A stretch of 64,000 nt of DNA from Candidatus Amesbacteria bacterium (GTDB lineage Bacteria; Patescibacteriota; Microgenomatia; CAZETR01; Amesbacteraceae): positions 5,294 to 69,293 of the forward strand of contig CAVTQH010000002.1 in NCBI GenBank assembly GCA_963736875.1. Direction: 5' to 3'. The notes beneath the pieces were generated by a model. The model was not told the DNA's origin and did no database searches. It worked only from the letters and a program-made list of their open reading frames with translations. The translations under genes and the position numbers were made by a program. Below, in pieces: positions 33,322 through 64,000 of the stretch; position 1 is the first letter of the stretch; every line of letters begins with the position of its first letter.

Positions 33322-33361
33322 TCGATTCGGTCTGGGTGCGCCATATTCCAACATAAATGAA

Positions 33362-34270: not shown

Positions 34271-34391
34271 CACCAACTTTCAGTTGCGAAGAAAGAGACC
34301 GGATAACAAAGTATTGCTAGCCAACGCACACCATCCCGCCCCTTTCACACACAACCCCACAGGTCAACTTCTTTCTTTCTGGTATCAACAG

Positions 34392-34479
34392 CGGAGGAGG
34401 TGGGATTCGAACCCACGTGAGCCTTGCAGCTCAGGAGTTTAGCAAACTCCCCGAATGGACCAGACTATCGGACTCCTCC
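34392..34479 (-). tRNA. tRNA-Ser(GCU)
   Basis: Minus strand GGAGGAG...GGAGT-TTGCTAA-ACTCC, long variable arm, GTGGG-TTCGAAT-CCCAC, CTCCTCC-G. Confidence 0.85.
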
Positions 34480-37360: not shown

Positions 37361-37798
37361 TTATTTCTCTTCCCTCTCCAGATCTCTCTTTTTTATCTTC
37401 TCCCTTTTCTCATACTTTCTTTTCCCCCGGGCCAGCGCCAGTTCAATCTTTACATAATTACTTTTGGTATACATCGCCGTCGGCACCAACATTCGCCCTG
37501 ATTGCTTCATTTTAGACTGTAAGGCAATTATTTCTTTTTGATGCAGTAAAAGTTTTCTGATTCTTTTCGGATCATAGTTTGTATTATCCGCGTGTTTGTA
37601 AGGATAAATATGCAAATTTATCACAAACATTTCATTCTGACCTTTAAACCTGGCACTCTGTGTCTTCACGTGGGCATTTTCCATATCCACCTGACCCAGC
37701 TTCGCCGACTTGACTTCCGCTCCGGTTAATTCAATCCCCGCTTCAATCCGCTCTCCCAGTTCATAATCAAACCTGGCTTTTTTGTTTATCACCTTCAT
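37361..37798 (-). CDS. smpB: SsrA-binding protein
   Basis: MKVINKKARFDYELGERIEAGIELTGAEVKS is a SmpB N-terminus; ATGA overlap with the upstream gene stop; adjacent to ssrA. Confidence 0.85.
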   Translation of the reverse strand: MKVINKKARFDYELGERIEAGIELTGAEVKSAKLGQVDMENAHVKTQSARFKGQNEMFVINLHIYPYKHADNTNYDPKRIRKLLLHQKEIIALQSKMKQSGRMLVPTAMYTKSNYVKIELALARGKRKYEKREKIKKRDLEREEK

Positions 37799-39690
37799 AT
37801 TTTTATTTTCCAGATTTTTCCTTCTCCCAATCCGTACATCCACCCCCCTTTCTCGTCCGCCGCCAGGTCTGCCATTTTTTCCAGACCGTCATTTACCCAT
37901 TGCTTCTCATACTTACCGTCTTTGCCAAGAATTACTATTCTCTTATTTTGCGGGTCCAGTATATACACTTTTTCACTCTCGTCGGTGGTAAAAACCACCG
38001 CTTTCTCCCCCCATGGCTTATCCATTCCCTCAATCGCCAAACCGTCATTTACCCCCCGGGTAAATTTAATAAGTTCTCCGGGTTTTACCATCCAGATGCT
38101 TCCGTCTATTGCCATACTCATAACCCCCTTTAATTTTTCTCCTCCTTCACCGTCAGCCAGCCAGGGTTGTCTTAAACCGTATCCTCCGGTTTTGGCTGCG
38201 TACCTCCATATTTGGCCCGATCCTTCGTCTAAAAGGTATATATTCCCGGCAAATACTTTCATATCGGCAATATTTCCCCAGCCCTCATCCGCTTCTACTT
38301 TAACTTTTGCATCCCCCACCTCGGATATCCCTTTTTCAGCCAAAACAAATATTTTATCCGGATATGTAGCGACAAGCACCGCCCCTTTCCATCCCTCTCC
38401 TCCGGCAATTACTTTCCCCGATCCCGACTTTTGATCCACCTCCACCAACCTCCCCCCCGTTTTATCCAACACCACCAGTTTCCCCTCTTCCAATGCTATC
38501 TTTTCCCCCTTCATCCCTTCCCGCACCAAACTTAAATCCACCAGTTCATTCAATTCCGCTGTTATTATCCCCGCCGCTTCCTGCCACACCTGATCCCATT
38601 CCGCGTTAATTCCCGCAATCCTGGAGTCTTTTACTCCCTCCGGTTTTAGCTGCCCCAGTCCGTTTTTAATTTCCCCCAGAAGCTGCCTGCTCCGGGAAGG
38701 ATTTAAGGCAATCATCGCTTTAGCCTCATTAAAATCAAATACCAGTTTCTCAATCTGAGTTTCCTGCAGGCTTTCCTTTTGCGTTTTCTGCCGCAGCCAC
38801 AACTGACCCATTCCCGCCATCAAAAGCAAGACCGCTAAAAAAAACACCCCCAAATACATCATTCTTTTCCGTTGCTCCTGTTTATCCCCGTGCCGGATAT
38901 AAATCCTTCCTCTTACTCCCTCCAGTTTTCTTTTCAGAAAAACCCATCTCGCCTCTTTCTTTTCCTCTATCCTGCTTTCTTCCGGCGCTTTTTCTTCCTC
39001 CGCCTCTTTTTCCTCTTCTTTTTCAGTTACAGACAATTTGTCATTAATTTTCTGAATTTTTACTATTACTCCCGCCTCTCCCCCTTTTCTTTCGCTTCCC
39101 CGCTGTACGGCAGCCAGCATATCGACAGCCGCCTCCATCTCCTCTCCCGCGGTAGCCACTGCCGCCCGTAAAAGCCCGTCCGGCACTCCTGAAAAAAAGC
39201 TTTTATTCCCCAATACCACCATTTCACTCTCTTCCCCTCTTCCGCTGAAAGCCGCTTCTTTCTCTCTTTCTTCCTCTGCTCTAACCAGCCACCCCTGCTT
39301 TTCTGCTTGATTCTCCCCTTCCGCAGGCCGGCTTACCCATACCCCCACTCCCCCGCCCGCCACGATGTAAACAAACTCTCCCGCCAAAACCACCCCTCCG
39401 ATTTCTACCCCCTCAAATTCTCTTCTTACGCTCCCTATGGCATTTTTTAACACTATAAAAGCCTCTCCCGTCTCCTCTCCGTAATACAGCTCATGCAGCC
39501 GGGCCAATACTTCCCGGCCCGCCTGTACCATCTCTACCTGTTCAGTTCCCTCGGAAGCTTCCATCCCCACCACCGCCACCAGCCGGCCTCTTTTAGAAAG
39601 TTTCTCTTCTCCCTCCGGGGTAAAATCATAGACCTGAGCCCAAGCATTTTGTCCCAATTTCCCCACTAGTTTTCCCGCCACGGCATCCAT
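37795..39690 (-). CDS. hypothetical membrane protein with Glu/Lys-rich low-complexity region and C-terminal beta-propeller-like repeats
   Basis: Central EKEEEKEAEEEKAPEE tract, one TM helix, and a C-terminal region with repeated (V/I)xxLDxxGxxxxxxD blades. Confidence 0.4.
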   Translation of the reverse strand: MDAVAGKLVGKLGQNAWAQVYDFTPEGEEKLSKRGRLVAVVGMEASEGTEQVEMVQAGREVLARLHELYYGEETGEAFIVLKNAIGSVRREFEGVEIGGVVLAGEFVYIVAGGGVGVWVSRPAEGENQAEKQGWLVRAEEEREKEAAFSGRGEESEMVVLGNKSFFSGVPDGLLRAAVATAGEEMEAAVDMLAAVQRGSERKGGEAGVIVKIQKINDKLSVTEKEEEKEAEEEKAPEESRIEEKKEARWVFLKRKLEGVRGRIYIRHGDKQEQRKRMMYLGVFFLAVLLLMAGMGQLWLRQKTQKESLQETQIEKLVFDFNEAKAMIALNPSRSRQLLGEIKNGLGQLKPEGVKDSRIAGINAEWDQVWQEAAGIITAELNELVDLSLVREGMKGEKIALEEGKLVVLDKTGGRLVEVDQKSGSGKVIAGGEGWKGAVLVATYPDKIFVLAEKGISEVGDAKVKVEADEGWGNIADMKVFAGNIYLLDEGSGQIWRYAAKTGGYGLRQPWLADGEGGEKLKGVMSMAIDGSIWMVKPGELIKFTRGVNDGLAIEGMDKPWGEKAVVFTTDESEKVYILDPQNKRIVILGKDGKYEKQWVNDGLEKMADLAADEKGGWMYGLGEGKIWKIKI

Positions 39691-40695: not shown

Positions 40696-42477
40696 CTATT
40701 TTTTCTCGATATTAAACAGTCCGGATTTTAATGCTAATGCTCCGGGTGCCCGCAAATTAAACCCTTTTTTAAAATTCGCTCCCGAAATTGCCACTTCCCC
40801 TCTGTTGGTAGTCAGTATCACCCGGCCGGTCACCCCGCTCCTGTCATGCTCCACCCGGACTGCGGAAACACTGGTTACCCGGCCTCCGTATTTGTCCGCC
40901 TCCTCTGCCATCCGGGATTTCGACCAGGGATTATCGCTTCCTCCCCAACAACTCCGGACATCCTCCGGAAAAACTCCGCTGATATCCCCGCCCGCCGCAA
41001 CCACTATCGCCGCATTCACCATATCCGCAAATTCCGCTTCGGACAGCCACGGGTGGCTTCTTCCGCAGGTCTTCCCGCTTCTTGATTTGTACCATCCTTT
41101 ATAAAACCAGGGGCTTCCGCCCTTTACTTCCCAGGCTCCGTCCGCCCACCTCGTCCAGTCCGAAGTTGTATCCCAAAATCCCCCGGCTGTATGTCCCAGA
41201 CTGGAAGAACTTTGCTGGTAACCTCCCGAAGTACTGGCATACCAGGCATTCACCACTTCATTTGAGTCATTGCCTACCAATATTTTCCCGCGGGTTTCAG
41301 ACACCGCCTGGGCCCACAGCCCGGGATTGTCCGCTTTACTCGATTTCCACACCTGGCAAGCCTCGGTCACGCAGATCGAGCTTTTCACCGACTGGCTCCC
41401 CATCCGCCACCCGGTATAAGCCAGGGCATAGCTTCTGGCCGCAATTGCCTGGGCTTTTAATGCTTCCATTCCTCCCTCACTTCCCCAGACTGTCGGCATT
41501 TCCGCAATCCCCTTCATATATCTGTCCTCAAATGCCATATTTCCCGCAGTGGTTCTCATGGTTATTCCCGTATTTACTTCCGCAATTCTCACATTCCCGT
41601 AATAATCTTTCAGAATCTGTTCATAGTTTTGGCCCGCCTTTGCCCGGCCGAATGCTCCGTACTGGCTCATCCCTTTAAAGTGCGGAGCCCCGAAAGAAAA
41701 CATCGCAAATGCCGGTGAAAATCCCGGATTGTAGCCGGGTCTGGCTGCCGGATCATCGGCCAGTGGCACATCCCCTACCGAAGTCGTAAATGTCCCCGTT
41801 TTCTCTGCCAAAAGTTCCTGTTGCCTGGCGGTTAATGCCGAAATCTTTCCCCCCAGGTCCGCTTCATAACGACTCGCTTTCGCTACTTCCCCGGCCAGCC
41901 ACTTTTCCTGCTTATCTGTTTTTTCCTTCAACAAAGCCAGGCTGGTTTTCTGTGCCGTCAGTGTCCGGGTCTGTTCATCCAGTTCTTTGATTTCCCCGGC
42001 CAAAGCTTCAATCAGTCCCTGGTCCATCAAAGTTAATCTTTTCCGGTATTCCATTTCCCTGAAAAATCCGGCCGCGGAATCTGCCGAAAACAGCAGTTTC
42101 AAAATCGGCTGCTCCCTTCTCCTGACATAATCCTGTCTGATTTTGGCCGAGAGAAGTTCCTGTTTCACCCCCACTTTCACTTCTCTTTCAAAAATTCCCT
42201 TTTCCAGTTTCACCACCTGCCCCTCCAGTGATTTAATCTGTGTCTGCAGCCTTCCGATTTGTGCCTGCAGGGACTGCAGTGTCTGTTTATTGGCAGTGTT
42301 TGCTTTGGCTATCGCATCCAGTATCCCGCCGTATTTGCTGATACACCCGGATATTACCTGCGGATCCGTCAAACCCCCCGGATTATCACACTCTTCCGCT
42401 TTTACTATGCCGGTAAACATCACCAAACACCCCATCATAATCAACGTCACCGCTGACAAAACACCCCTCTTGGTCAT
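40696..42477 (-). CDS. secreted coiled-coil protein with C-terminal SpoIID/LytB domain
   Basis: Signal peptide; ~200-aa coiled coil (LQTQIKSLEGQVVKLEKG...); C-terminal FKGMSQYGAFGRAKAGQNYEQIL matches the SpoIID GMSQ.GA signature. Divergently transcribed from the pilin array. Confidence 0.65.
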   Translation of the reverse strand: MTKRGVLSAVTLIMMGCLVMFTGIVKAEECDNPGGLTDPQVISGCISKYGGILDAIAKANTANKQTLQSLQAQIGRLQTQIKSLEGQVVKLEKGIFEREVKVGVKQELLSAKIRQDYVRRREQPILKLLFSADSAAGFFREMEYRKRLTLMDQGLIEALAGEIKELDEQTRTLTAQKTSLALLKEKTDKQEKWLAGEVAKASRYEADLGGKISALTARQQELLAEKTGTFTTSVGDVPLADDPAARPGYNPGFSPAFAMFSFGAPHFKGMSQYGAFGRAKAGQNYEQILKDYYGNVRIAEVNTGITMRTTAGNMAFEDRYMKGIAEMPTVWGSEGGMEALKAQAIAARSYALAYTGWRMGSQSVKSSICVTEACQVWKSSKADNPGLWAQAVSETRGKILVGNDSNEVVNAWYASTSGGYQQSSSSLGHTAGGFWDTTSDWTRWADGAWEVKGGSPWFYKGWYKSRSGKTCGRSHPWLSEAEFADMVNAAIVVAAGGDISGVFPEDVRSCWGGSDNPWSKSRMAEEADKYGGRVTSVSAVRVEHDRSGVTGRVILTTNRGEVAISGANFKKGFNLRAPGALALKSGLFNIEKK

Positions 42478-42513
42478 TTAGTCATTATATCCGTAATCTG
42501 CTATAGTAATCTT

Positions 42514-42909
42514 ATGCGTCGTAAGCTGACTTTTTTATCTCTCAATATTCTCCTTTTTTGCCTGTCGTTTTTATACCCCCTCCCGGTATCTGCTGAATGG
42601 TGCACCCCCGGAAATCCCACCTCCGGAGTAAGAACCGCCTTGGGTTGTCTCCAAATTATTACTCCCACCGCTTTTATCTCCCAACTTCTTCCTTGGTTAA
42701 TGGGAATGGCAGGTCTGATTGCTCTTTTAACAATAGTCTATGCTGGTTTCCTTATAATTACCGCTGGTGGTGATCCTAAAAAAATTACCGCCGGAAAAGA
42801 AATTATCTTCACTTCGATAACCGGTCTCGTTTTTATTGCTTTAACTGTTCTGTTACTTAATTTTATCGGGGTGAGAATCCTTCAGTTGGGTCCTGAAGGA
42901 TTCCATTAA
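42514..42909 (+). CDS. VirB2/TrbC-like pilin paralog 1
   Basis: Signal/TM1, loop ITAGGDPKKITAGKEII, TM2; the same architecture recurs in the next nine genes. Confidence 0.6.
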   Translation: MRRKLTFLSLNILLFCLSFLYPLPVSAEWCTPGNPTSGVRTALGCLQIITPTAFISQLLPWLMGMAGLIALLTIVYAGFLIITAGGDPKKITAGKEIIFTSITGLVFIALTVLLLNFIGVRILQLGPEGFH

Positions 42910-42924
42910 CTAAAAAACAATATT

Positions 42925-43221
42925 ATGCACCTGGCTCAGCTTTCCCTCCCGTCCCCATCATCAGTCTTCACTGATTGGTATACTTTGCCATCCGTGCTGG
43001 CCGGCCGTATCCTCATGTACGCCATCCCGCTTGCCGGCATTTATTTCTTCGTCAGACTGCTGACCGCCGGTTTTTCAATGATGTCCAGCCAGGGTGATCC
43101 GGCCAAAATTCAGACAGCTCAAAGCGTCATCACTAATTCACTATTAGGCCTATTAATAGTTATCACCGTTTATTTTATTGTCCAGATTGTTCAATATATT
43201 ACCGGCATTAATCTTATATGA
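42925..43221 (+). CDS. VirB2/TrbC-like pilin paralog 2
   Basis: TM1 - SSQGDPAKIQTAQSVITNSLLGLLIV - TM2. Confidence 0.55.
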   Translation: MHLAQLSLPSPSSVFTDWYTLPSVLAGRILMYAIPLAGIYFFVRLLTAGFSMMSSQGDPAKIQTAQSVITNSLLGLLIVITVYFIVQIVQYITGINLI

Positions 43222-43284
43222 AAAGTTGGCGTATCACCACATATTATTTTCTTTTATCTATTTCTTTTACACCCCCCCCACATT

Positions 43285-43605
43285 ATGCCGTTTAATATCG
43301 ACGGAATTTTCATCGACCATCCCAATGCCAGAAGCTTCTCGGGTAATGATATTGGTCAGGTCATTTCAGCGCTTCTACCCAATGCCATAATTATTGCCGG
43401 TGTCTTTTTCTTTCTGTTGATTATCTATGGTGGTTTCCAGTTAATCGTCTACGGAGGCCAGAATAACAGCCCGCAACGGGTTTCCCAGTCAAGAAACATG
43501 ATTACTTACGGACTCATCGGCTTCTTGCTAGTTGTCTCTGCCTATTTTATACTACAAATAATCCAGTACGTTACCGGAATTAACTTTATTAACACTCCCA
43601 TATAA
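43285..43605 (+). CDS. VirB2/TrbC-like pilin paralog 3
   Basis: TM1 - VYGGQNNSPQRVSQSRNMITYGLIGFLLV - TM2. Confidence 0.55.
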   Translation: MPFNIDGIFIDHPNARSFSGNDIGQVISALLPNAIIIAGVFFFLLIIYGGFQLIVYGGQNNSPQRVSQSRNMITYGLIGFLLVVSAYFILQIIQYVTGINFINTPI

Positions 43606-43611
43606 AATAGA

Positions 43612-43971
43612 ATGCTTGGCATCTTCGGCGACATCCTCAACCCATACCGTCCGGCTGGAATTAATGTTCCCACATACAGTGGTAGTACCCAAGGTCAGGG
43701 CTTAATTATTATCCTTACCAACCTTGTCCGTCTGGCTATGGTTCTAGCCGGTATCTACACCTTAATCAATATTATTCTGGCCGGTTACGGATTCTTAAGC
43801 GCCGGCGGAGACCCCAAAGCAATTCAAAAATCCCAGGAAAGAATTTGGCGCTCTGTTTTGGGTTTGGTTATCGTTGTCGGTTCAATAGTTCTTGCCAGTG
43901 TCATAGGTTATATTCTCTATGGAAGCTCCGGATGGAACTTACTGATTAGTCCCCGATTATATTCTCCCTGA
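43612..43971 (+). CDS. VirB2/TrbC-like pilin paralog 4
   Basis: TM1 - LSAGGDPKAIQKSQERIWRSVLGLVIV - TM2. Confidence 0.55.
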   Translation: MLGIFGDILNPYRPAGINVPTYSGSTQGQGLIIILTNLVRLAMVLAGIYTLINIILAGYGFLSAGGDPKAIQKSQERIWRSVLGLVIVVGSIVLASVIGYILYGSSGWNLLISPRLYSP

Positions 43972-43979
43972 TCAAAATT

Positions 43980-44345
43980 ATGTCTCCCCTTCTTGCCGCC
44001 CAAACTACCATCGGAAACATCACCGGTATCGGACCATACGGTACCCCTCCTGGACCTGCTTCTGCTATTCAGTATTTCACGGGGATTATTTCAACTATCA
44101 TCGGGCTTTTAACCATCATTGCCGGTTTGTGGTTCATGATTCAGATAATACTCGGCGGTCTTCGTTGGATTTCTTCGGGTGGCGACAAACAAGCTAACCA
44201 GGATGCTCAAAAGCGCATTACCAACGCCCTGATTGGTATCGTCATTGTTATTTTTGCCTACGCCTTCAATGGCCTTGTGGGTCAGATTTTCGGATTGGAA
44301 ACAATAGACGTTGGCGGTTTAATTTTTAACAACATTCGTCCTTAA
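43980..44345 (+). CDS. VirB2/TrbC-like pilin paralog 5
   Basis: TM1 - ISSGGDKQANQDAQKRITNALIGIVIV - TM2. Confidence 0.55.
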   Translation: MSPLLAAQTTIGNITGIGPYGTPPGPASAIQYFTGIISTIIGLLTIIAGLWFMIQIILGGLRWISSGGDKQANQDAQKRITNALIGIVIVIFAYAFNGLVGQIFGLETIDVGGLIFNNIRP

Positions 44346-44348
44346 AAC

Positions 44349-44702
44349 ATGTATTCACGTCTTTTAGCTCAGGGTATTCCCATTATTAATCCCGCCATAA
44401 ATACGCGTATTGGTATTTTTGCCAACGTTTCCAACAGTGGTGGAGCCATTCAATCCCTGCTTCGGATACTCATAAACCTCGCCTTGGGTGTTTCCGGTCT
44501 CTATTTTTTCTTCACTCTCATCCTCGGAGGATATGCCTTTATTACAGCCGGCGGAGACAAAGAAGCCGTCCAAAAGGCTACCGCTCGAATCCGTAACGCT
44601 TTTATCGGTATAATTGTCGTCTTTTCTACTTATGTTATCGTCTATGTCGTCGAAACTCTCTTTGGCATCAATATCAGGTTGATTAATCTCCCCAATGTCT
44701 AG
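44349..44702 (+). CDS. VirB2/TrbC-like pilin paralog 6
   Basis: TM1 - ITAGGDKEAVQKATARIRNAFIGIIVV - TM2. Confidence 0.55.
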   Translation: MYSRLLAQGIPIINPAINTRIGIFANVSNSGGAIQSLLRILINLALGVSGLYFFFTLILGGYAFITAGGDKEAVQKATARIRNAFIGIIVVFSTYVIVYVVETLFGINIRLINLPNV

Positions 44703-45048
44703 AATTATGTTAAAACTGATAGCGCAAGCCGATACTGTCACCGTCCTGAGCAACAATCCCAATTACGCCGCCATTGAGTTGCTTAGACCATCTTGGTATA
44801 TCAGAACAGCTCTGAATCTCCTCCTGGGTGCAGCCGGTGTGGCCGCTTTTATATTCCTTCTTATGGGCGGAATTCAATGGATCATGGCAGGCGGAGATAA
44901 AGATGCTTTGGACAAAGCCAGAAAGAAAGTCACCCAGGCCTTAATTGGTTTGGTAATCGTCTTTTCCTCCTATGTCATCCTCTATATCATCCGCGCTTTG
45001 TTCAATGTTAACCTCATTCAGTTTACCATAAGAAATCTGGGTGGATAA
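44695..45048 (+). CDS. VirB2/TrbC-like pilin paralog 7
   Basis: TM1 - IMAGGDKDALDKARKKVTQALIGLVIVFSSYVILYII - TM2; near-identical to paralogs 8 and 9. Confidence 0.6.
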   Translation: MSRIMLKLIAQADTVTVLSNNPNYAAIELLRPSWYIRTALNLLLGAAGVAAFIFLLMGGIQWIMAGGDKDALDKARKKVTQALIGLVIVFSSYVILYIIRALFNVNLIQFTIRNLGG

Positions 45049-45124
45049 TCCGGATAACACTGTCCCATTTAACGCTCCTGTCTTGTTGCTTGGTTCAAAT
45101 TGTTATAAACTGGTTTTTACCTGC

Positions 45125-45517
45125 ATGAAACGTTTTTCGATATCATACTTTGCCGCACTCATCCTGCTTTCACTGATTGTCCCCTCTTCGGTTTTTGCCG
45201 GTGTTATTATTAATCTCCAGGATCCAAGCAGTCCTTACAGAAACATCTACAATCTTCGTCCGTCGGCATACGCCAGAACCGCTATCAACCTGCTTTTGGG
45301 TTTTGCTGGTGTTCTGGCTTTTCTCTACCTCCTCTGGGGTGGAATTCAATGGATTACGGCAGGCGGTGACAAAGATGCTTTGGACAAAGCCCGCAAACGG
45401 ATTACCCAGGCTCTTATCGGTTTGGCCATCGTCTTCTCCGTTTATGCTCTCCTCTATATCATCCGCGTTCTCTTCGGTATCAATCTCATTCAGGTGGTCA
45501 TCAATAACATCAGTTAA
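45125..45517 (+). CDS. VirB2/TrbC-like pilin paralog 8
   Basis: Start re-chosen at MKRFSISYFAALILLSL (ATG 45125). ITAGGDKDALDKARKRITQALIGLAIVFSVYALLYII. Confidence 0.6.
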   Translation: MKRFSISYFAALILLSLIVPSSVFAGVIINLQDPSSPYRNIYNLRPSAYARTAINLLLGFAGVLAFLYLLWGGIQWITAGGDKDALDKARKRITQALIGLAIVFSVYALLYIIRVLFGINLIQVVINNIS

Positions 45518-45555
45518 TCTGTGCTATACTTTCCTCGAAAGGTGGTGAGTTTATA

Positions 45556-45975
45556 GTGAAAATTCAAAAACTTCTCTCTTATGGAGGGGCTTTGGCCACA
45601 GTTTTGGCCCTCAACCCCTCTTCCGTTTTGGCTCAGGGGGCCCCGTTGGCTCCTGACACGGCCTCGATTTTCAACGTCGACTCCACCCGTTTCGGTATGC
45701 TGATGGGCTATACCCCGTCAATGTTTTTAAGAACTCTCTTAAATGTTCTTTTGGGTGTAGCTGGTGTTGCTTCATTCATCATCCTTTTATGGGGTGGTCT
45801 GCAATGGATTCTGGCTGGTGGAGATAAAGAAGGCACTGAAAAAGCCCGCAAAAAGATTACTGCGGCTCTTATCGGTTTGGCCATCGTCTTCTCCGCATAC
45901 GCTTTGCTGTATATCCTCAGGGCTCTGTTTAACGTCGACCTTATTCAGGTTGAACTTCGTCAGATCGGTACCTGA
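45556..45975 (+). CDS. VirB2/TrbC-like pilin paralog 9
   Basis: ILAGGDKEGTEKARKKITAALIGLAIVFSAYALLYIL; signal peptide MKIQKLLSYGGALATVLALNPSSVLA. Confidence 0.6.
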   Translation: MKIQKLLSYGGALATVLALNPSSVLAQGAPLAPDTASIFNVDSTRFGMLMGYTPSMFLRTLLNVLLGVAGVASFIILLWGGLQWILAGGDKEGTEKARKKITAALIGLAIVFSAYALLYILRALFNVDLIQVELRQIGT

Positions 45976-46035
45976 TGATAAAAGGCAAATTGCCAAAATT
46001 ACTACCCCGGTTCTTGCCGGGGTAGTTTTTTTGTC

Positions 46036-46359
46036 TTGTTTGGCTTATATTTATACTCAAGCATGACCCCTCCTTCAATTCTTAGTAATCTTTCCTATGT
46101 CTTAGCCGCTGGCATCTTACGCTCGGCTATCGGTTTGGTCGGTGTTGCTTTTATTATTATGTTGGTGTTCAGTGGTTATAACTACATCAGCGCCGGCGGT
46201 AACAAGGAAGCCCTGATCAAAGCTCAGCACTCCTTCACATATGCTTTTATCGGACTGATTATCGCTTTATCAGCATGGATTATTGTCAGCATGGTCGGTC
46301 GTTTCGTTGGTGTTAACTTCCGTGTTTTCTCAGTCTGTATTACCCCGGGTTGTATATAG
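46036..46359 (+). CDS. VirB2/TrbC-like pilin paralog 10
   Basis: TM1 - ISAGGNKEALIKAQHSFTYAFIGLIIA - TM2. Confidence 0.55.
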   Translation: MFGLYLYSSMTPPSILSNLSYVLAAGILRSAIGLVGVAFIIMLVFSGYNYISAGGNKEALIKAQHSFTYAFIGLIIALSAWIIVSMVGRFVGVNFRVFSVCITPGCI

Positions 46360-46401
46360 CTTTTTGTTTGATATTGCCAATCTTCTGCTACAATATATTT
46401 A

Positions 46402-56131: not shown

Positions 56132-56799
56132 ATCCCCAAATCCATACCCGGACTCAGGACCATCTCGACATCGACGACATTATTAACGATATTATTATTT
56201 TAAAAGACGGGTCAGCCGCTCTGGTTCTCCAAGTCAGTGCCGTCAATTTCGGCCTGCTTTCGGAAAAAGAGCAGGATGCCACCATCTATGCTTATGCCCA
56301 GCTTTTAAACTCCCTCACTTTCTCCATCCAGATTGTGATTATCAGCAAACGCAAGGATATTTCAGTCTACCTGGATAAACTTGATGCTTATCTGGCTCAA
56401 ATCACTACCCCCAAACTAAAGGACGAGCTCTCAAAATACCGCGATTTCGTCAAAGCCATCGTCAATCAGGGAAATGTCCTTGATAAAAAATTCTATATCG
56501 TTATTCCCTTCAGCTCCATGGAGTTGGGTTTGGGTTCTTCCCTCAAGTCTCTCGGTAACCCCAATGCAAAATCCACCGTTCCCAAAGAATATCTTGTCGA
56601 CCGAGCAGCCACCAACCTCGCTCCCAAACGGGATCATCTTTTCAGGCTTCTGGCGCGTATCGGTCTGAAAGGCCATCAGTTAACCTCGTCCGAGCTTCTT
56701 CAGTTGTTCTTCGATATCTATAATCCGAACTGGATCGGTACCCGGGTTACTCTTCCCCATTCATCTGAAATTTTACCTAAAGCCGAAGAAAAAATATGA
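56128..56799 (+). CDS. VirB4/TraC-like N-terminal domain protein (separate ORF)
   Basis: IIILKDGSAALVLQVSAVNFGLLSEKEQDATIYAYAQLLNSL resembles the VirB4 N-terminal domain; ATGA overlap with the following ATPase ORF. Confidence 0.45.
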   Translation: MNPQIHTRTQDHLDIDDIINDIIILKDGSAALVLQVSAVNFGLLSEKEQDATIYAYAQLLNSLTFSIQIVIISKRKDISVYLDKLDAYLAQITTPKLKDELSKYRDFVKAIVNQGNVLDKKFYIVIPFSSMELGLGSSLKSLGNPNAKSTVPKEYLVDRAATNLAPKRDHLFRLLARIGLKGHQLTSSELLQLFFDIYNPNWIGTRVTLPHSSEILPKAEEKI

Positions 56800-58649
56800 G
56801 TCTTCTTTCCCCCAAAAAATCCGCATCTCCCAAAACAGCGCCGGTTCAGCCTGAAAATAAAGAATCACCCCCCACTAAAGATTTAGCCCTGGCCAAAACC
56901 GTCAGGGACATCATTGCTCCCCAATCTCTGACTATTGATTTCAATACACTTAAAATTAACGAGTCATACTTTCGCAGTTTTTTTACCACCATCAACCGCC
57001 GCTTTGTTTCCAGTAACTGGCTTAGCTCCATCATTAACTTCGATCACTCCTTAAATATCTCCATGTTTATCTATCCGGTCGAAAGCAAATCCACTCTTGA
57101 TGACCTGCGCCGAAAAATAGCTGAAATGGAAGCCGAAATTAGTACCGATATGCAGCGCGGCCATGTGGTCGATCCGTCCACCCAGGCCAAGCTTGAAGAC
57201 GCCCTGTCTCTTCAGGATACATTAGTCAAAGGCATTGAACGTTTCTTCCAATTCTCGCTATATCTGACCATTCCCGCCGATTCTGCCTCGGAGCTGGAAA
57301 CTGTCAGTAAACAGGTATCAAGTAATCTTTCCTCTCTTCTGGTTTCCTCCATTCCCACTCTCCTGCAGCAGGCTGAGGGTTTCAAAAATACTCTCCCCAC
57401 CTGTATCGACCACCTCATGGTCACCCGCAACATGGATACTACTTCACTGGCAACCACTTTTCCTTTTACTTCATCCGAACTGACCAGCAATGAAGGTATT
57501 TTATACGGCATCAACCAGCACAACGGCAGCCTGGTTATTTTTGACCGGTTTACTCTTGAGAACGCCAACACTGTGGTTTTTGCCAAAGCGGGCGCCGGAA
57601 AATCTTATACCATCAAACTGGAAATTCTCCGTTCCCTGATGTTCGGAACTGAAATTATTGTCATCGATCCTGAAAATGAATATAAAACATTATGTGACGC
57701 CGTGGGTGGCGACTACATCAACTTTTCCTATAACTCCCAAAACCGGATCAATCCTTTTGATTTGTCTCTCCTTACTCAATACTCCGAAGAAAACGAGCTC
57801 AACCTTAAAATTCAGTCTCTTTTTTCCATGTTTAAGGTGATTATGGGTACCCTTTCTCCCACTGAAGAAGCTCTCCTTGACCGGGCAATAAATCAGGCTT
57901 ACAGAATGAAAGGTATTACCGCCGACCCTACTACTCAAAAACGCCCTCCTCCCCTCATGGAAGACCTGTACAAGTCCTTTATCGGTATGGAGGAGCCACT
58001 GGCCATCTCTCTGGCTGACCGCATTGAACGGTTCGTCAAAGGCAGCTTTACTGGCATCATAGACCAACCCAGTAATATTCAGATCAAAAACCAGTTTACG
58101 GTATTTTCAGTCCGTGATCTGGAAGACTCTTTAAAACCCATCGCCATTTTTCTTATTCTTGACTACATCTGGACCAAAATGCGCCGTGATCTCAAAAAGC
58201 GCATTCTGGTGGTTGATGAAGCCTGGTATCTCATGCGTTATCCGGATTCCGCTAATTTTCTTTACGGTGTGGCCAAAAGAGCCCGGAAATATTTCCTGGG
58301 ACTGACTACTATTACCCAGGATGTGGAAGACTTTTTAAATACCGATTTCGGCAAGGCTATTGTCACCAACTCTTCCATCCAGATTCTGATGAAGCAATCC
58401 CCTGCAGGAGTCGATAAAATCGCCCAGGTTTTCTATCTTTCCGAAGGAGAAAAACATCTTCTTTTAAGTGCCGGTGTGGGTGAAGGTCTCTTCTTTGCCG
58501 GCAATAACCACGTAGCCGTCCGCTTTGTTGCTTCACCGGATGAACATAAGTTGATTACCACCAAACCCTCGGAAATTCTTGCAAGGCAGCAAGCCCAAGC
58601 ATCCGCCAAAAATCCTCCCCGTCTAATTACCGAAACCGAAAAAGCATGA
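56796..58649 (+). CDS. VirB4/TrbE-like (DUF87) secretion ATPase, C-terminal ATPase domain
   Basis: Walker A VVFAKAGAGKSYT; VIDPENEY; Walker B RILVVDEAWYLM; GLTTITQDVEDF. Confidence 0.75.
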   Translation: MSLLSPKKSASPKTAPVQPENKESPPTKDLALAKTVRDIIAPQSLTIDFNTLKINESYFRSFFTTINRRFVSSNWLSSIINFDHSLNISMFIYPVESKSTLDDLRRKIAEMEAEISTDMQRGHVVDPSTQAKLEDALSLQDTLVKGIERFFQFSLYLTIPADSASELETVSKQVSSNLSSLLVSSIPTLLQQAEGFKNTLPTCIDHLMVTRNMDTTSLATTFPFTSSELTSNEGILYGINQHNGSLVIFDRFTLENANTVVFAKAGAGKSYTIKLEILRSLMFGTEIIVIDPENEYKTLCDAVGGDYINFSYNSQNRINPFDLSLLTQYSEENELNLKIQSLFSMFKVIMGTLSPTEEALLDRAINQAYRMKGITADPTTQKRPPPLMEDLYKSFIGMEEPLAISLADRIERFVKGSFTGIIDQPSNIQIKNQFTVFSVRDLEDSLKPIAIFLILDYIWTKMRRDLKKRILVVDEAWYLMRYPDSANFLYGVAKRARKYFLGLTTITQDVEDFLNTDFGKAIVTNSSIQILMKQSPAGVDKIAQVFYLSEGEKHLLLSAGVGEGLFFAGNNHVAVRFVASPDEHKLITTKPSEILARQQAQASAKNPPRLITETEKA

Positions 58650-58927
58650 TTTTTTCCTTTCCTGCCCACCTGGACCACTCTGTTGTCAGTGAGCTGGAAA
58701 ACTATATTATCAATATCTGCAACTCCTGCCCCACCCTGGAAAACATTACCGCCGGTTCTGCCCCCATATGGGATTGGGCCAGCCAAATTCTTAAAAAAAG
58801 CCCCGCCGAGCTTCATCATGAAATCGAAACCCATGAAGCAGGTGAGCATTTTTCCGATCCTTATCTTGAAGAAAAAGATGATTTATTAAAACTGCCGTTA
58901 ATTTTATTAGAAAAACTCAACACTTAG
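58646..58927 (+). CDS. small hypothetical protein (translationally coupled to the ATPase)
   Basis: 93 aa, ATGA overlap, contains a CNSC pair. Confidence 0.3.
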   Translation: MIFSFPAHLDHSVVSELENYIINICNSCPTLENITAGSAPIWDWASQILKKSPAELHHEIETHEAGEHFSDPYLEEKDDLLKLPLILLEKLNT

Positions 58928-58942
58928 TTTTATAGTTAAGTT

Positions 58943-61240
58943 ATGATCCCGACATCCGCCACTTCCACAACTGATCTTCTCCGAAATTACCAGCAGCCGG
59001 GACTGAAAGCCTTCAGCGCTATTCTTTCTCAAACATCACTCCCCCCCACCCAGGCAGCTAAATTATTAGAGCATTTGGATCAGAAAAACATTCTTTTTGT
59101 AGCCTATGCCATAGCTAAAAATTCTCTTGCCCCGGGTCAGGAAAAAGACCTGGATCGTGTAGCTCAAAACTTAATCCCTATCCTCCAGTCTGCTGTTGAT
59201 TTGTCCCAAAGAGAACTTAATCTCAGTCCTGAACAGGTGGTAAGTGTTCAGCAAAACTTGGGTGATCTTTCTCAAAAACCCGAAGAAACTAAAGAATTTT
59301 ATCAGCAGTTTGAAAAGGAATATCCAGAAGAGCAGACAAAGCGCCCGGAAAACTATGAATCTTCTCATGGAGGTTCAAACCCCTTATTGGATCACGTAAA
59401 AAATCAGGCAGATAAAGCTGTCAAAAAAAAGGTCAAGGAAATCTGGGAAAATTTTAAAAAATCTCCCACCGGTAAAACCGTTAAAACACCCCCAACCCCC
59501 GCACCTGCTCAGGGAGTTTCTACAACAGTGTTACCAACCACCGGAACTACGGTCACAATTTCAACCGGTGAAGACGCTGTTTTAGGCACCGCCGCTGCCG
59601 CGAAAGCTTTAACCGGGGTCCCACAAACAATTACCCGTATATCCCCGCTAAACATCAGCCTTCGTCCCACTCCCCCAATTCCAGTTTCAGGAGCTCCACC
59701 TCCTCCTGTAGGTGCAATTTCGGGAAAAATTGTTGGTTTTTCCGTAAACCCTCAAACCTCTTTATCAGGAATAATTCCTCGGGAATATATGTCCTTCGGA
59801 ATTCTCAAACAAATACCCGCAACTGAAGCAGTTAAAAACTTCGGACTGAACATGGCTTCGGAAGGAACTAAATTCTTTCAAATTACCGAAAAAGGGGCCA
59901 TGTTGGCTTCAAAAATACCCTCAATTGGGTCCTCTCTTGGTTCATATATTCCCGGCTCCGCCGGTATTACAACCCTAGTATCCACACCCACCAGCACCAT
60001 TGCTGTTTCTGGAATCAGTACTTCAGGAGGGGTTACTATTGGTACAGCAACCACAATAGGTACCACCGGACTGACCACTATTGGGACTACTGGACTCACC
60101 GCTGTAGGTACTACCACTGCCACAGCAGTAGGGACTACTGCTGTTACCACCACCGCCACAGCTGTAGGTACTACCGCTGTCACAACAGTGGGTACTGCCG
60201 CCGTTACCACAGCCGCCACAACCACAGCAGCTGCAACCACCGGTGTTGCTACAGGCGCAACTGTAGGAGCCGCCGCCGGTGGCCCGACTCCTGTAGCAAT
60301 TGTCACTGCAATAATCGGAGCCATTATTGGCTTGATCGCCGGTTTAATCCCAAGTATTTATAAAAAATTTAAGGATTATTTTGATGCTATAGTGGGTGCG
60401 ACTTTGGTTATAATCTTCGGTTCATTCGCTGGTTTGGGTTTTTTACCGGCACTGGCCCTTGGTGGTATGACAGGTGGTTTTATGGCTTTAACCAATACCT
60501 CAATTGTGGGTGCCATCTCCGGTCTTGGTAATTCTCTTGTTGATATTGCTAAGGGTGTCAGTGTCACCACGGCGGTTGCCTTTTTTTTAGCAGCAATTAT
60601 CCTTCCTGCTGTAGTCGCAATAATTATTTTCTTCATCAACACTGGGGGTTACGTCACCCCACAAGCTCCTGTTTCTTTCTTTGACCCTGGTGGAGGTTTT
60701 GCTGATCCCACAAGCTGCCCTATTTTGGGTGGTTATGTCACCTGGGGATCATATGACCCCACCAATGAAAATAGTGGTTCCGCCGGAGGACATGGTAGTA
60801 ATTCTTACTGGAGTGGATTAGCTGCTTGCTCATATGCTCTTCCCCAAAGCACTGGTTGTATGGGTCCAAACAGCAATCCCGCTAACATTTGTTATGGCGC
60901 TGGTAATCAATGTACTGAATATGGATACGCCGCGGATATTCACGCTGTCTCAGGCACCCCTGTCTATCTTCCACTCGTTGATGGTCAACCAGCAAACTGG
61001 AGTTGTCACCGTGCTTTTCAAAACCCTGGTGGAGCCGGTTTTACAATTTACTGCGATACAAGCGATGGCAATGTTCACCTGGTCCTTACCCACGTTAACG
61101 ACGCTTCTCCCCTGACCAACGTTCCGTCTGGAACTCAAGTGTCCACAATTGATTGGGATGCAAATCCCCATTTACATATGGAGGCTCAGGTGGGTGGTGT
61201 TTGGGTTAGACCTGAAAATTATTTTTGTGGTGGAACCTAA
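58943..61240 (+). CDS. membrane-associated M23 peptidase (cell-wall hydrolase candidate of the secretion locus)
   Basis: C-terminus YAADIHAVSGTPVYLP...NPHLHMEAQV = M23 HxxxD and HxH motifs. Central Thr-rich low-complexity tract (TTGLTTIGTTGLTAVGTTTATAVGTT...) followed by 2-3 TM helices; soluble N-terminal domain. Confidence 0.6.
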   Translation: MIPTSATSTTDLLRNYQQPGLKAFSAILSQTSLPPTQAAKLLEHLDQKNILFVAYAIAKNSLAPGQEKDLDRVAQNLIPILQSAVDLSQRELNLSPEQVVSVQQNLGDLSQKPEETKEFYQQFEKEYPEEQTKRPENYESSHGGSNPLLDHVKNQADKAVKKKVKEIWENFKKSPTGKTVKTPPTPAPAQGVSTTVLPTTGTTVTISTGEDAVLGTAAAAKALTGVPQTITRISPLNISLRPTPPIPVSGAPPPPVGAISGKIVGFSVNPQTSLSGIIPREYMSFGILKQIPATEAVKNFGLNMASEGTKFFQITEKGAMLASKIPSIGSSLGSYIPGSAGITTLVSTPTSTIAVSGISTSGGVTIGTATTIGTTGLTTIGTTGLTAVGTTTATAVGTTAVTTTATAVGTTAVTTVGTAAVTTAATTTAAATTGVATGATVGAAAGGPTPVAIVTAIIGAIIGLIAGLIPSIYKKFKDYFDAIVGATLVIIFGSFAGLGFLPALALGGMTGGFMALTNTSIVGAISGLGNSLVDIAKGVSVTTAVAFFLAAIILPAVVAIIIFFINTGGYVTPQAPVSFFDPGGGFADPTSCPILGGYVTWGSYDPTNENSGSAGGHGSNSYWSGLAACSYALPQSTGCMGPNSNPANICYGAGNQCTEYGYAADIHAVSGTPVYLPLVDGQPANWSCHRAFQNPGGAGFTIYCDTSDGNVHLVLTHVNDASPLTNVPSGTQVSTIDWDANPHLHMEAQVGGVWVRPENYFCGGT

Positions 61241-61257
61241 AGTGTAAAATATCAAGT

Positions 61258-61788
61258 ATGACTCAATTAAATATTCGTCTTCCTGAGAAGCTTCACAGAA
61301 ATTTCAGTCTTGTCATTGTGGGTTTGATAATTATTATAGCTACTTCTCTCCTTACTCTCCCCCAAAGAAACACACCACCCACATCATCGCCACCATCCTT
61401 ACCCAACAATGTCCCATCAGTTTCTGTCACCGAAATTTCTCCCTTTAAAATTATTGGCTATTCTCCACGGAATTTAAATCCTTCCATTGCCAACACCCAC
61501 TCTGCGGTTTACTTTGAATTTAATAAGCCTCTGACTGATATAGAAATTGCTAACCTACAGCTAATTACAAAACCGGCAGTAATTTTTAAAAAAATTGCCC
61601 ATACCAACAGAAAAATCATATATTTTACCCCAATTTCTTTCTGGAAGGATCAAACCCTCTACACTATAACCATCAGCTCACCATCTGACCCCGATCTTAA
61701 AACTTTCTTTTTCTCCCCTACCTCATATGTCTCACCGGAGGGTGGGGTAAGTGACCAAGTCCCTAATATGTGGCCTTCTAAACCCTGA
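61258..61788 (+). CDS. bitopic membrane protein (VirB8-like position; unassigned)
   Basis: Start re-chosen at MTQLNIRL (ATG 61258); one TM helix then ~140-aa extracytoplasmic domain. Confidence 0.3.
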   Translation: MTQLNIRLPEKLHRNFSLVIVGLIIIIATSLLTLPQRNTPPTSSPPSLPNNVPSVSVTEISPFKIIGYSPRNLNPSIANTHSAVYFEFNKPLTDIEIANLQLITKPAVIFKKIAHTNRKIIYFTPISFWKDQTLYTITISSPSDPDLKTFFFSPTSYVSPEGGVSDQVPNMWPSKP

Positions 61789-62899
61789 CCGGCATTATCA
61801 GGTGTACCAGACTTCCGTCTTTTTCCAGCTCAAAAACCCCGGGCGACAAACTATCATTCATTCGAAATTTTATCCGTTCTGCGGACACACTGCTCAGAAA
61901 ATCCTGTACATACCGGTAATTAAAAGCAATCTGTCCGTCATCTCCCTTTTTCTCTGTCTCCATATCTACCCGACTCTCCCCTGTTTGCGCGGAACTTGCT
62001 TCAACTTTTAGAACCTCTCCTTCAATTCCGAATCTGATTACATTGGAACTGTCCCTGGCAAATATTCCCACTGCCTTAACTGCCCGGGTCAGTTCCTCCC
62101 TGTCAATCACAATTTCGGTCTTCCCCCCGGTTGGAATTATTTTATCCACGTCCGGAAAATTACCCTCCAGCACCCGTGAAGTCAAATATATGCCGTCATA
62201 TCCGATTATTATCTGATTACTATCCTCCGCCATTCCCATTACCACTTCCTCTTTCTTACCCTCTGAAACTACTCTGGCAATTTCCATTATTGTTCTGGCC
62301 GGTAATATTAACCCCTTTTCCAGCCCTTTTAATTCGGTTTCAATGTCTAATGATTTTTGGCTTAGCCTGAAACCGTCCGTGGCCGTAACTTTAAGTTTCT
62401 TTCCGTCGGTTTCAAACATTACTCCGGTCAAAACCGGCCTGCTCTCATCACCCGCTGCCGCAAACGCCACTTGTGTCGCAATTTCTTCAATTGTCTTTTT
62501 ATTCAACCTAAACCCTTTCTTTCCCGTTTGGTCGCTGTCCGGTTTTGAGATTACCGGAAATTCGGCAGCGGAGATTCCCGTAAAGGTGGCTGTTAATTTT
62601 CCCCCTTCCACTTTCAGTTTTTCCCCATCAGTCTCCAGGCTTACGTTACCTGAAGGAAGCGACCCCACAAATTCACCTAAACTTCTTGCCGGAATTGTAA
62701 CCGCCCCGTTTTCCATAGCTTTTCCTCCAGCCACAGCTCTTATTCCTATTTCCAAATTGGTGGCAGACAGCACCACGCCTTCTTTTCCCGACTCGATTAA
62801 AACATTAGAAAGAATCGGCAGCTGGCTTCTGTTGGGAACAATTCTTCCCACTACGGTAAGCCACTTATTCAGGTCGCCTTGTAAAATTATAGCCTTCAT
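61778..62899 (-). CDS. dnaN: DNA polymerase III beta sliding clamp
   Basis: 373 aa; MKAIILQGDLNKWLTVVGRIVPNRSQLPILSNVLIE is a typical DnaN N-terminus; three-domain length; downstream of dnaA. Confidence 0.88.
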   Translation of the reverse strand: MKAIILQGDLNKWLTVVGRIVPNRSQLPILSNVLIESGKEGVVLSATNLEIGIRAVAGGKAMENGAVTIPARSLGEFVGSLPSGNVSLETDGEKLKVEGGKLTATFTGISAAEFPVISKPDSDQTGKKGFRLNKKTIEEIATQVAFAAAGDESRPVLTGVMFETDGKKLKVTATDGFRLSQKSLDIETELKGLEKGLILPARTIMEIARVVSEGKKEEVVMGMAEDSNQIIIGYDGIYLTSRVLEGNFPDVDKIIPTGGKTEIVIDREELTRAVKAVGIFARDSSNVIRFGIEGEVLKVEASSAQTGESRVDMETEKKGDDGQIAFNYRYVQDFLSSVSAERIKFRMNDSLSPGVFELEKDGSLVHLIMPVRV

Positions 62900-63124: not shown

Positions 63125-64000
63125 TTAATCAGCTCCGGGAGAGAAAATGGTTTTTCTTACTTCCGAAAGTTCCGACTGAAATTTGTGGTTTTGTTCAATT
63201 TCCCCCCTGACCTTGTCCGCGGCATGCAGGACCGTGGTGTGATCCCTTCCCCCAATAAGTCTTCCCACCTCTTCCAGGGGTAGCCGCAAATCCTGCCTTA
63301 AAAGATACATCAGGATCTGCCGCGGCCAGGCTATAGCCTTCGTTCTTCTCTCCCCTTTTAATTGCTGTACTCCCACCCCGTAAAAACTTCCCACAGCGTT
63401 TATTACTTCTGCCGGTGTGATTACCTGCGACCTCCTGCTTTCATTCTCTTTGATTTTTAATATTTGTTCCAGTTCCTCCCTGGAAATTTTTTTACCTCTC
63501 AATTTTTCCTCGGTTTCCACCTTGCTTAAAAAGCCCTGAAGCTCTCTCACCCCTTCTACATTCTCAGCGATCAATTGAGCCAGTTCCATTGGTAAATCAA
63601 AATCCCGCTGCTTGGCTTTTATCAGAAGAATTGCGGTTCTCAGTTCAAAGTCGGCTGCTCCGATATCCACAATCAGTCCCGCGCCGAAACGGCTTCTCAG
63701 TCTCTCTTCCAGTTTGGAAATTTCTTCCGGCGGCTTGTCGCTGGTCATTACCACTTGTCCGCCTTCCCGCAGCAAGGTATTAAAAGTGTGGAAAAATTCC
63801 TCCTGGACGGACGGTTTGCCGGCAATAAACTGCACATCATCCAGCATTAGCAGTTTTAATTTCCGGTATTTGGATCTGACTTTATCCGTGGATTTGAATC
63901 TGATTGCTTCTACTAAATCATTGGTAAATTCTTCACCGGAACAAAATAAAACCTGTGTCGTTCCCGCCCTGATTACCTCATGCCCGATGGCCTGCATCAA
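63125..64000 (-). CDS. dnaA: chromosomal replication initiator DnaA (3' portion; N-terminus beyond window end)
   Basis: AAA+ sensor and domain IV sequences: LLMLDDVQFIAGKPSVQEEFFHTFNTL, GGQVVMTSDKPP, and C-terminal DNA-binding helix region RTKAIAWPRQILMYLLRQ...GGRDHTTVLHAADKV. Confidence 0.9.
   Translation of the reverse strand: MMQAIGHEVIRAGTTQVLFCSGEEFTNDLVEAIRFKSTDKVRSKYRKLKLLMLDDVQFIAGKPSVQEEFFHTFNTLLREGGQVVMTSDKPPEEISKLEERLRSRFGAGLIVDIGAADFELRTAILLIKAKQRDFDLPMELAQLIAENVEGVRELQGFLSKVETEEKLRGKKISREELEQILKIKENESRRSQVITPAEVINAVGSFYGVGVQQLKGERRTKAIAWPRQILMYLLRQDLRLPLEEVGRLIGGRDHTTVLHAADKVRGEIEQNHKFQSELSEVRKTIFSPGAD

Follow-up and report, generated by a model that had tools for sequence, protein, structure and literature searches.

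What purpose does a type IV secretion system (T4SS) serve in a cell when its locus encodes a VirB4-type ATPase, a large set of pilins and several envelope proteins, and no coupling protein or relaxase is recognizable among the genes around it? The question is raised by a 64-kb window (the whole stretch of DNA analyzed here) of chromosomal DNA from Candidatus Amesbacteria (Microgenomatia, Patescibacteria), in which a T4SS-like locus adjoins dnaN and dnaA. The locus is very probably a chromosomal, origin-proximal T4SS-like system of the Patescibacteria type. The system is already known: it is a textbook Microgenomatia example of the published Patescibacteria architecture and not a new kind of machine. 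That architecture was described in a survey of 2,474 patescibacterial virB4 genes (Quinonero-Coronel et al., 2025; PMC12102498).

The core of the machine is encoded on the plus strand. Its central component is a 617-aa protein (56796-58649) corresponding to the C-terminal two thirds of a VirB4-family ATPase, which matches NF045971 (conju_CD1110) over positions 185-734 (E 3.1e-110; 369.6 bits against a cut-off of 325) and Pfam P-loop_TraG (2.3e-29), and which is the sole T4SS-type (VirB4/TraG-like) P-loop ATPase in the window. The preceding open reading frame (ORF; 56128-56799), which overlaps virB4 by ATGA, matches NF045975 over positions 108-277 (1.5e-8) and TrsD under its cut-off (1e-4), and represents a free-standing N-terminal domain of VirB4. 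By these profile matches, VirB4 appears to be of the Gram-positive (CD1110/MPF-FATA-like) type, split into an ORF for a TrsD-like N-domain and an ORF for the ATPase; a VirB4-like ATPase in two ORFs had been noticed by the first-pass annotation of this DNA. The split is natural, since the two parts are separate in 70 of 75 related loci and fused in the other five. At E < 1e-20, homologues of the ATPase number more than 8000, and the closest named ones among the matches listed belong to Candidatus Amesbacteria and the Microgenomates group. Identity amounts to 75-98% across approximately the first 100 of the 120 listed matches, which include all those named Amesbacteria, and one homologue cluster (P0001), located on a 441,639-bp public contig, is 100% identical.

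Directly upstream, the ORF 55163-56131 (plus strand) encodes a PrgI/VirB3-like membrane protein, which scores well above the cut-off for PF12666 (PrgI; E 7e-9, 36.6 bits against 27), in agreement with its first assignment. Its C-terminal part, connected through a proline-rich linker, had been taken for a Cna-B domain; this did not hold, the fusion partner being a CarboxypepD_reg-type beta-sandwich (3.7e-11). Cna_B and CarboxypepD_reg belong to the same transthyretin-like superfamily. The beta-sandwich domain is kept in 67 of the 80 related loci described below, and its fusion to PrgI is the norm across Microgenomatia. The claim of the first-pass annotation that the combination of features is unusual is not supported, given this frequency and the architecture already described in the survey (Quinonero-Coronel et al., 2025).

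A tandem array of ten small ORFs, each with two transmembrane (TM) segments, occupies 42514-46359 on the plus strand. The Pfam scans covered the window ORFs judged likely to be genes, from about 75 aa up to 1652 aa; nested or overlapping ORFs taken as spurious were left out, as was the ORF 32637-33344 (minus strand), which overlaps a tRNA. All ten small ORFs match PF18895 (T4SS_pilin), and eight of these matches exceed the gathering score. Three ORFs (pilins 7, 8 and 9) also match TrbC/VirB2 (PF04956) below threshold (E 9e-4 to 0.016). The array of ten putative VirB2/TrbC-like pilins noticed earlier is present. Aligned with one another, the pilins consist of two hydrophobic helices and a common AGGD loop, with a mean identity of 31% (range 17-64%), the value for pilin 7 and pilin 8 being 64%. 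Pilin 1 (42514-42909; 131 aa; PF18895 3.1e-10) is VirB2-like and starts with a signal-peptide-like N-terminus. It is followed by pilin 2 (42925-43221; 98 aa), which stays under the gathering score (17.7 bits) and can be aligned with the other pilins, GD loop included, by pilin 3 (43285-43605; 106 aa; 1.7e-6), and by pilin 4 (43612-43971; 119 aa), likewise under the gathering score (18.9 bits) and aligning with the family. Pilin 5 (43980-44345; 121 aa; 6e-9) and pilin 6 (44349-44702; 117 aa; 1.2e-8) precede a group of recent paralogues formed by pilin 7 (44695-45048; 117 aa; 4.6e-7; TrbC 0.0038), pilin 8 (45125-45517; 130 aa counted from ATG 45125, with the ORF listed from GTG 45041; 1.4e-7; TrbC 0.016) and pilin 9 (45556-45975; 139 aa; 2.1e-8; TrbC 9e-4). 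These three are recent duplicates also at the DNA level, sharing a 220-nt direct repeat, with 67-75% identity of pilin 7 to pilins 8 and 9. Pilin 10 (46036-46359; 107 aa; 2.7e-8) is separated from pilin 9 by a terminator-like hairpin (46001-46026, plus strand; 11-bp stem with seven GC pairs and a T run), which is a consensus match only and could separate or attenuate transcription between pilins 1-9 on one side and pilin 10 with the downstream genes on the other. Promoter and terminator scans found sites no more often than in shuffled sequences of the region, this one strong hairpin being the only notable result. Two of the related loci carry, besides the upstream array, a second pair of pilin genes immediately 3' of virB4 (L038:12257-12956 and L045:12235-12950).

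To place the locus among its relatives, one genome per species was scanned, and relatives of VirB4 turned up at 588 loci or more; 80 of these, sharing 60-87% VirB4 identity and originating from Amesbacteria, Curtiss-, Gottesman-, Shapiro-, Woese- and Beckwithbacteria and others, were kept for comparison. Local tblastn searches detected VirB4 in all 80, PrgI and TrsD in 75 each, dnaN in 61, dnaA in 60 and the C-terminal part of the VirB6-like protein in 40. The conserved order consists of the pilins, a giant protein, the VirB6-like protein, a large antisense ORF, prgI, trsD, virB4, a variable hydrolase-bearing membrane protein, dnaN and dnaA. The section prgI-trsD-virB4...dnaN-dnaA recurs in 60-75 of the 80 loci, and PrgI adjoins trsD-virB4 in 75. 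The synteny comparison with other Patescibacteria T4SS-like loci that the first-pass annotation had suggested thus revealed a gene order recurring across related loci. Together with the Amesbacteria and Microgenomates affiliation of the VirB4 relatives, this order favors its reading of the locus as one of the stripped-down VirB4/VirB6/pilin systems of ultra-small bacteria. Conservation is uneven along the locus. Between the window and loci L001 and L029, VirB4 (85-87% identity) exceeds even DnaA (73-75%) and DnaN (59-71%), and the envelope-exposed VirB6-like, giant and M23-like proteins are only 31-49% identical.

Two of these fast-evolving genes are broken in the window. The VirB6-like protein (49910-51446, plus strand), a polytopic membrane protein whose N-terminal domain is secreted, is distributed over the ORFs 49910-50407 and 50328-51446 by a frameshift near 50386-50392, the gene being a single ORF of 520-632 codons in five relatives, with which the joined translation aligns across the junction ('...ATPVHAQ|TGYGYNNLTGIRGLW'). 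No Pfam or NCBIfam match was obtained, its profile found nothing among PDB sequences, and the 86 database homologues are all unannotated. The AlphaFold2 model of the 372-aa membrane part, built with 62 sequences, is confident (predicted local distance difference test score, pLDDT, 82.6; predicted template modeling score, pTM, 0.77), and its polytopic helical fold resembles that of solved VirB6 structures, TrwI chains ranking at the top of a Foldseek search with a weak E value of 0.045. The product of 49910-51446 is accordingly assigned as a protein with a predicted VirB6 fold, an identification made from the structural model. The earlier proposal of a VirB6/TrbL-like channel protein was thus supported at the level of predicted fold and not by hidden Markov models (HMMs), and the gene is frameshifted here and intact in relatives.

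The giant secreted cysteine-rich protein (46402-49846, plus strand; approximately 1150 codons) appears in the window as three ORFs (46402-48621, 48539-48883 and 48896-49846), the first of which has a signal-peptide-like N-terminus and 28 cysteines. The protein recognized by the first-pass annotation is therefore present, but as a single gene that is interrupted here twice, by a change of frame within 48539-48621 and by an in-frame stop codon (TAG, 48881-48883). Four relatives, L029 (at least 1120 aa), L002 (1491 aa), L004 and L005, have it as an uninterrupted ORF; the coordinates in three of them are L002:195-4667, L004:1-3084 and L029:3-3362. Genetic code 25 was considered for the in-frame stop and rejected, as the codon is TAG and not TGA, and Microgenomatia are not known to depart from genetic code 11. 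Pfam scans gave no match for the giant protein, and a comparison of its C-terminal module with PDB sequences gave nothing useful. Its core is conserved and its C-terminal module is variable, being exchanged between close relatives: L002 and L004 carry a GDSL lipase, in place of which the proteins of the window and L029 carry an unrelated, unannotated 170-aa domain with the motif 'WLNESDASNY'.

Candidate cell-wall proteins flank the machine on both sides. Divergently from the pilin array, 40696-42477 (minus strand) encodes a SpoIID/LytB-domain protein whose N-terminus carries a signal or TM segment and which also contains a coiled-coil region. Its SpoIID-like character, already noted in the first reading, was corroborated by Pfam SpoIID (2.8e-13) and TIGR02669 (2.6e-28; 99.7 bits against a cut-off of 83.3). 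In L043 and L045, the two loci of more compact build in which this region can be seen, a SpoIID gene likewise adjoins the pilin array. The protein of the window is a candidate cell-wall remodeling enzyme, which may play a VirB1-like role. Downstream of virB4, 58943-61240 (plus strand) encodes a 765-aa membrane protein with Thr/Ala/Val/Gly-rich repeats, TM helices and an extracellular, cysteine-containing C-terminal domain of putative LytM/M23 fold. This protein has no Pfam match at E up to 0.1 and no NCBIfam match, and a phmmer search of the PDB was negative; the predicted structure of the C-terminal domain displays the LytM beta-fold. Genes at the same position in relatives encode Peptidase_M23 (L006, 1.5e-22; L003, 3.5e-17), a sub-threshold VanY (L002) and NAGPA (L005). 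In the M23-like domain, H204-x-H206 and D126 are invariant, as is H78, located 48 residues upstream of D126. Because hhalign could match the window-type C-terminal domain to the M23 domains that Pfam recognizes in L006 and L003 solely along a common TM helix ('FIINssAyVvP'), the link to M23 rests on fold and not on a sequence profile. Of the M23 cell-wall hydrolase proposed at first, the predicted LytM/M23 fold was retained, whereas no HMM match was found and the canonical histidine of HxxxD is replaced by glycine.

From the parts list and its conservation, both observed directly, we infer a mechanism by analogy with established T4SS biology. In the R388 T4SS structure, VirB6 is the base for VirB2 assembly, and VirB4 powers the extraction of pilins. 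By this analogy, PrgI would tether the TrsD/VirB4 ATPase to the membrane, VirB4 would extract pilins from the membrane, and the pilins would polymerize, with VirB6 as their platform, into a pilus or tube of conjugative type that crosses the cell wall. The SpoIID-like and LytM/M23-fold proteins may remodel or open peptidoglycan, either that of the cell's own wall or that of a host, and the giant cysteine-rich protein, secreted and placed at the surface or tip, may act as an adhesin or an enzyme carrier. The apparatus would then serve host-cell contact and the exchange of macromolecules, through protein export or import of host macromolecules, and not plasmid conjugation. The many pilin paralogues and the fast-evolving surface parts may reflect adaptation to hosts or strains.

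Conjugation is unlikely because no coupling protein (T4CP) or relaxase was found. Among the scanned ORFs, none carries a T4CP (VirD4/TcpA), VirB11 or relaxase domain, as had been claimed for the 64 kb, and VirB5, VirB7, VirB9, VirB10, VirB11 and VirD4 gave no match. The locus might nevertheless be an integrated conjugative element (ICE), or a remnant of one, with its relaxase and coupling protein outside the window, as VirB4 scores best against VirB4 models of the conjugative CD1110 family and of mycoplasma ICEs, and PrgI and TrsD belong to Gram-positive conjugative T4SSs (Quinonero-Coronel et al., 2025). We consider this explanation extremely improbable and already largely refuted. Besides the lack of a relaxase or T4CP in the scanned window, no integrase was found there, a repeat search revealed no att-like flanking repeats, and the borders of the locus show no compositional break. 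Moreover, VirB4 is more conserved than DnaA, and the placement between housekeeping genes and dnaN/dnaA, kept in 60 of the 80 loci across several Microgenomatia lineages, is unlike that of a mobile element. The earlier argument against a canonical conjugative element is in line with these data, namely the scanned ORFs devoid of relaxase and T4CP, the surrounding housekeeping genes and the conserved dnaN-dnaA side. Several points nonetheless weigh against the interpretation of the locus as a chromosomal T4SS-like apparatus for host contact. The window covers 64 kb and the contig spans at least 441 kb, so a T4CP may be encoded elsewhere, and T4CP homologues far from virB4 are reported in many genomes (Quinonero-Coronel et al., 2025). 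The pilin profile found no match among PDB sequences, and all TrbC matches of the pilins lie below threshold, their likeness to VirB2 being suggested by sequence. The VirB6 match is at the level of fold, with 7% identity. Glycine stands four residues ahead of Asp126 in the M23-like domain, at the place of the canonical HxxxD histidine, and the domain may be a non-catalytic LytM domain. Finally, pilus formation in Patescibacteria and the function of the Microgenomatia T4SS are proposals that we infer from better-characterized systems.

The disrupted VirB6-like and giant genes raise a further objection, as the system might be non-functional in this genome. If the VirB6-like frameshift and the frameshift and stop in the giant gene were real mutations, the locus would be decaying; three disruptions fall within 3.5 kb, none occurs in the relatives compared (VirB6-like gene, five relatives; giant gene, four), and the public protein record of the same contig also contains a truncated 360-aa product (P0121). 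However, at least two unrelated genes of the window are frameshifted as well. A GalE-like epimerase gene (18560-19545, plus strand) has its Rossmann N-terminus out of frame with the ORF 18706-19545, with a frameshift near 18.6-18.7 kb, and a Wzy_C/O-antigen-ligase-like gene (6670-8911, minus strand) is split into 8099-8911 and 6670-8169 by a frameshift near 8.1 kb, which suggests assembly indel errors or else widespread pseudogenes. For this reason, assembly indel errors seem more likely than selective decay of the locus; the remaining T4SS genes are intact, VirB4 being 97-98% identical to its nearest relatives among the matches listed, and loss of function here appears quite improbable. A different alternative leaves the machine intact and reverses its direction, so that it would take up DNA or nucleotide polymers, like Helicobacter ComB or archaeal Ced, and feed a cell unable to synthesize nucleotides. 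ComB and Ced also lack a T4CP and relaxase, a ComFC-like gene (35515-36198) lies 5 kb upstream of the locus, and import is the favored hypothesis in the survey (Quinonero-Coronel et al., 2025). VirB4 also shows a weak similarity to CedB (1.8e-12), but its 46.7 bits are far under the cut-off of 700 and far under the CD1110 score; an NCBIfam scan of ten locus ORFs found no Ced- or ComB-type partners, the one match of CedD, to the VirB4 ATPase itself, being sub-threshold (E 1.9e-4; cut-off 600). In Southlakia, deletion of comEC abolishes competence and not viability, whereas the T4SS is essential (PMC12857230; PMC10633639), and because viability is retained, essentiality of the T4SS would not act through the known uptake channel. 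An enzyme-bearing secreted giant protein, with a GDSL lipase in relatives, suits an outward, host-attacking role at least equally well. Uptake is thus a possible but unlikely function of the machine.

Read as a chromosomal system for host contact, the locus agrees closely with the T4SS of the Patescibacteria clade in the survey (Quinonero-Coronel et al., 2025), with which it shares adjacent TrsD and PrgI/VirB3, tandem PF18895 pilins, no relaxase or T4CP nearby, and dnaA/dnaN beside it. The survey describes a VirB4 clade allied to the mating-pair formation type MPF-FATA, accompanied by TrsD, PrgI/VirB3, VirB6 and VirB2-like pilins, with almost no relaxases, with T4CP genes rarely near virB4, and with a location often beside dnaA and dnaN in Paceibacteria and Microgenomatia. 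It counts 441 arrays of VirB2-like pilins, comprising 2-11 genes with a mean identity of about 25% and most abundant in Microgenomatia and Saccharimonadia, and the ten-pilin array of the window falls inside this range. The two analyses differ in that the survey finds VirB6 homologues scarce in Microgenomatia, whereas the window encodes a protein with a predicted VirB6 fold whose C-terminal part occurs in 40 of 80 loci, and in that it places 22.6% of Microgenomatia VirB3 homologues near virB4, whereas PrgI is adjacent in 75 of the 80 loci analyzed here.

Among systems studied experimentally, a close counterpart is the T4SS of Candidatus Southlakia epibionticum ML1 (SEML1_0006-0019), which is likewise chromosomal, with Gram-positive-like subunits, a pilin array and no recognizable coupling protein or relaxase. 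Transposon sequencing (Tn-seq) showed that epibiotic growth requires this T4SS, its pilin array included (Wang et al., 2023; PMC10633639). Genes for a peptidase and a lysozyme lie 3' of its virB4 (Wang et al., 2023), a layout similar to that of the window. It differs in belonging to the class Saccharimonadia and in having six pilins instead of ten, and its essentiality is experimental, whereas the Amesbacteria locus is known from its genes. A 2025 review speculates about a conduit, made up of the T4SS and a pilus, that would serve signals or uptake from the host (PMC12857230). In Gram-positive conjugative T4SSs (pCF10 Prg/Pcf, the CD1110 family of CTn2, pGO1 Trs), which are borne by plasmids or ICEs, surface adhesins take the place of VirB2 pilins, and both a T4CP and a relaxase are present; in contrast, no T4CP or relaxase was found in the window locus, which encodes ten pilins and is fixed in the chromosomal origin region. 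The VirB-type systems (MPF-T) of R388 and Agrobacterium comprise an outer-membrane core of VirB7, VirB9 and VirB10 as well as VirB11, VirB5 and VirD4, none of which was matched by a scanned ORF here, in a monoderm envelope context. The tandem arrays of virB2 in Bartonella and Anaplasma also consist of divergent pilin paralogues, which are read as a means of host-range or antigenic variation (Quinonero-Coronel et al., 2025), but they belong to effector-translocating MPF-T systems of intracellular animal pathogens.

A possibly new lead comes from the antisense slot between the VirB6-like gene and prgI. In the window, this slot is occupied by a gene for a 1000-aa soluble protein with 35% charged residues (52014-55016, minus strand), which the first-pass annotation had overlooked together with the small genes 58646-58927 and 61225-61788. 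The protein has no Pfam or NCBIfam match; 44 related cluster representatives, its own included, were found among 1.84 billion, and a Pfam scan of these revealed no meaningful domain, apart from a marginal Csm6_6H match (E 6.5e-4) in one of them. Neither did Pfam detect a domain in five positional homologues. A large minus-strand ORF (580-1380 aa) fills the slot at 33 of the 35 loci in which both flanks are detectable. The 38 slot proteins contain on average 30% charged residues, 33 of them are free of TM-like segments, and they fall into 20 BLAST/phmmer clusters with no detectable similarity between clusters; hhalign of 37 pairs (the window cluster or the L029 protein against all other clusters) gave probabilities of at most 1.5%. 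The C-terminal third of the window protein is found again in slot ORFs of two loci, L067 and L017. The available portion of the survey (Quinonero-Coronel et al., 2025) contains neither this antisense variable slot nor the modular giant protein. Judged from their sequences, the slot proteins and the giant-protein modules look like lineage-specific cargo or host-range modules. It is conceivable, though we hold it with low confidence, that the machine handles lineage-specific effectors or adhesins encoded by two diversification hot-spots, namely the antisense slot and the giant protein's C-terminal module.

The overlooked small genes complete the stretch downstream of virB4. A 93-aa acidic protein with no Pfam match (58646-58927, plus strand) is encoded by a gene coupled to virB4 and kept directly 3' of it in L001, L029, L007 and L003. 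A single-TM protein with a weak Ig-like domain (61225-61788, plus strand; Big_5 0.0015, under the cut-off) is kept in L001 and L029. The origin-region genes, outside the machine and assigned from their translations, follow on the minus strand: dnaN (61778-62899), which begins 3.1 kb past virB4, and the 3' part of dnaA (63125-64000). The window also contains the housekeeping genes dnaG, rpoD and smpB, the tmRNA gene and six tRNA genes. GC skew is negative over the entire window (1-64000) and lowest over minus-strand genes, and the cumulative skew drops monotonically toward dnaA, which fits a single replichore beside the origin. An ORF resembling LAGLIDADG_3 homing endonucleases (34465-35466, minus strand) lies inside the tRNA cluster and overlaps tRNA-Ser (34391-34479) with its 5' end. 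Large ORFs of 1652, 549, 631, 396 and 493 aa (41-4999, plus strand; 4996-6645, minus strand; 37795-39690, minus strand; 29078-31746) belong to no Pfam family, and L043 preserves the synteny of the 631-aa protein with SpoIID and the pilin array. A segment of about 1.6 kb (13938-15591) contains no ORF of 110 aa or more and is part of a stretch of low GC content (0.40-0.41 across 14-18 kb).

To the published Patescibacteria architecture, the present analysis adds the structure-level identification of a putative VirB6, which HMM surveys mostly miss in Microgenomatia, the fusion of PrgI with a beta-sandwich as the rule, and a protein of predicted LytM fold at the position where relatives have M23, VanY or NAGPA domains. 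The T4SS of Patescibacteria deserves such attention, as the only species tested cannot grow epibiotically without it and as it is unusually well conserved in tiny genomes. The hypervariable slot and the modular giant protein could guide the search for its substrates, and if their products proved to be substrates or host-range determinants, they would provide a first handle on the cargo of this essential system.

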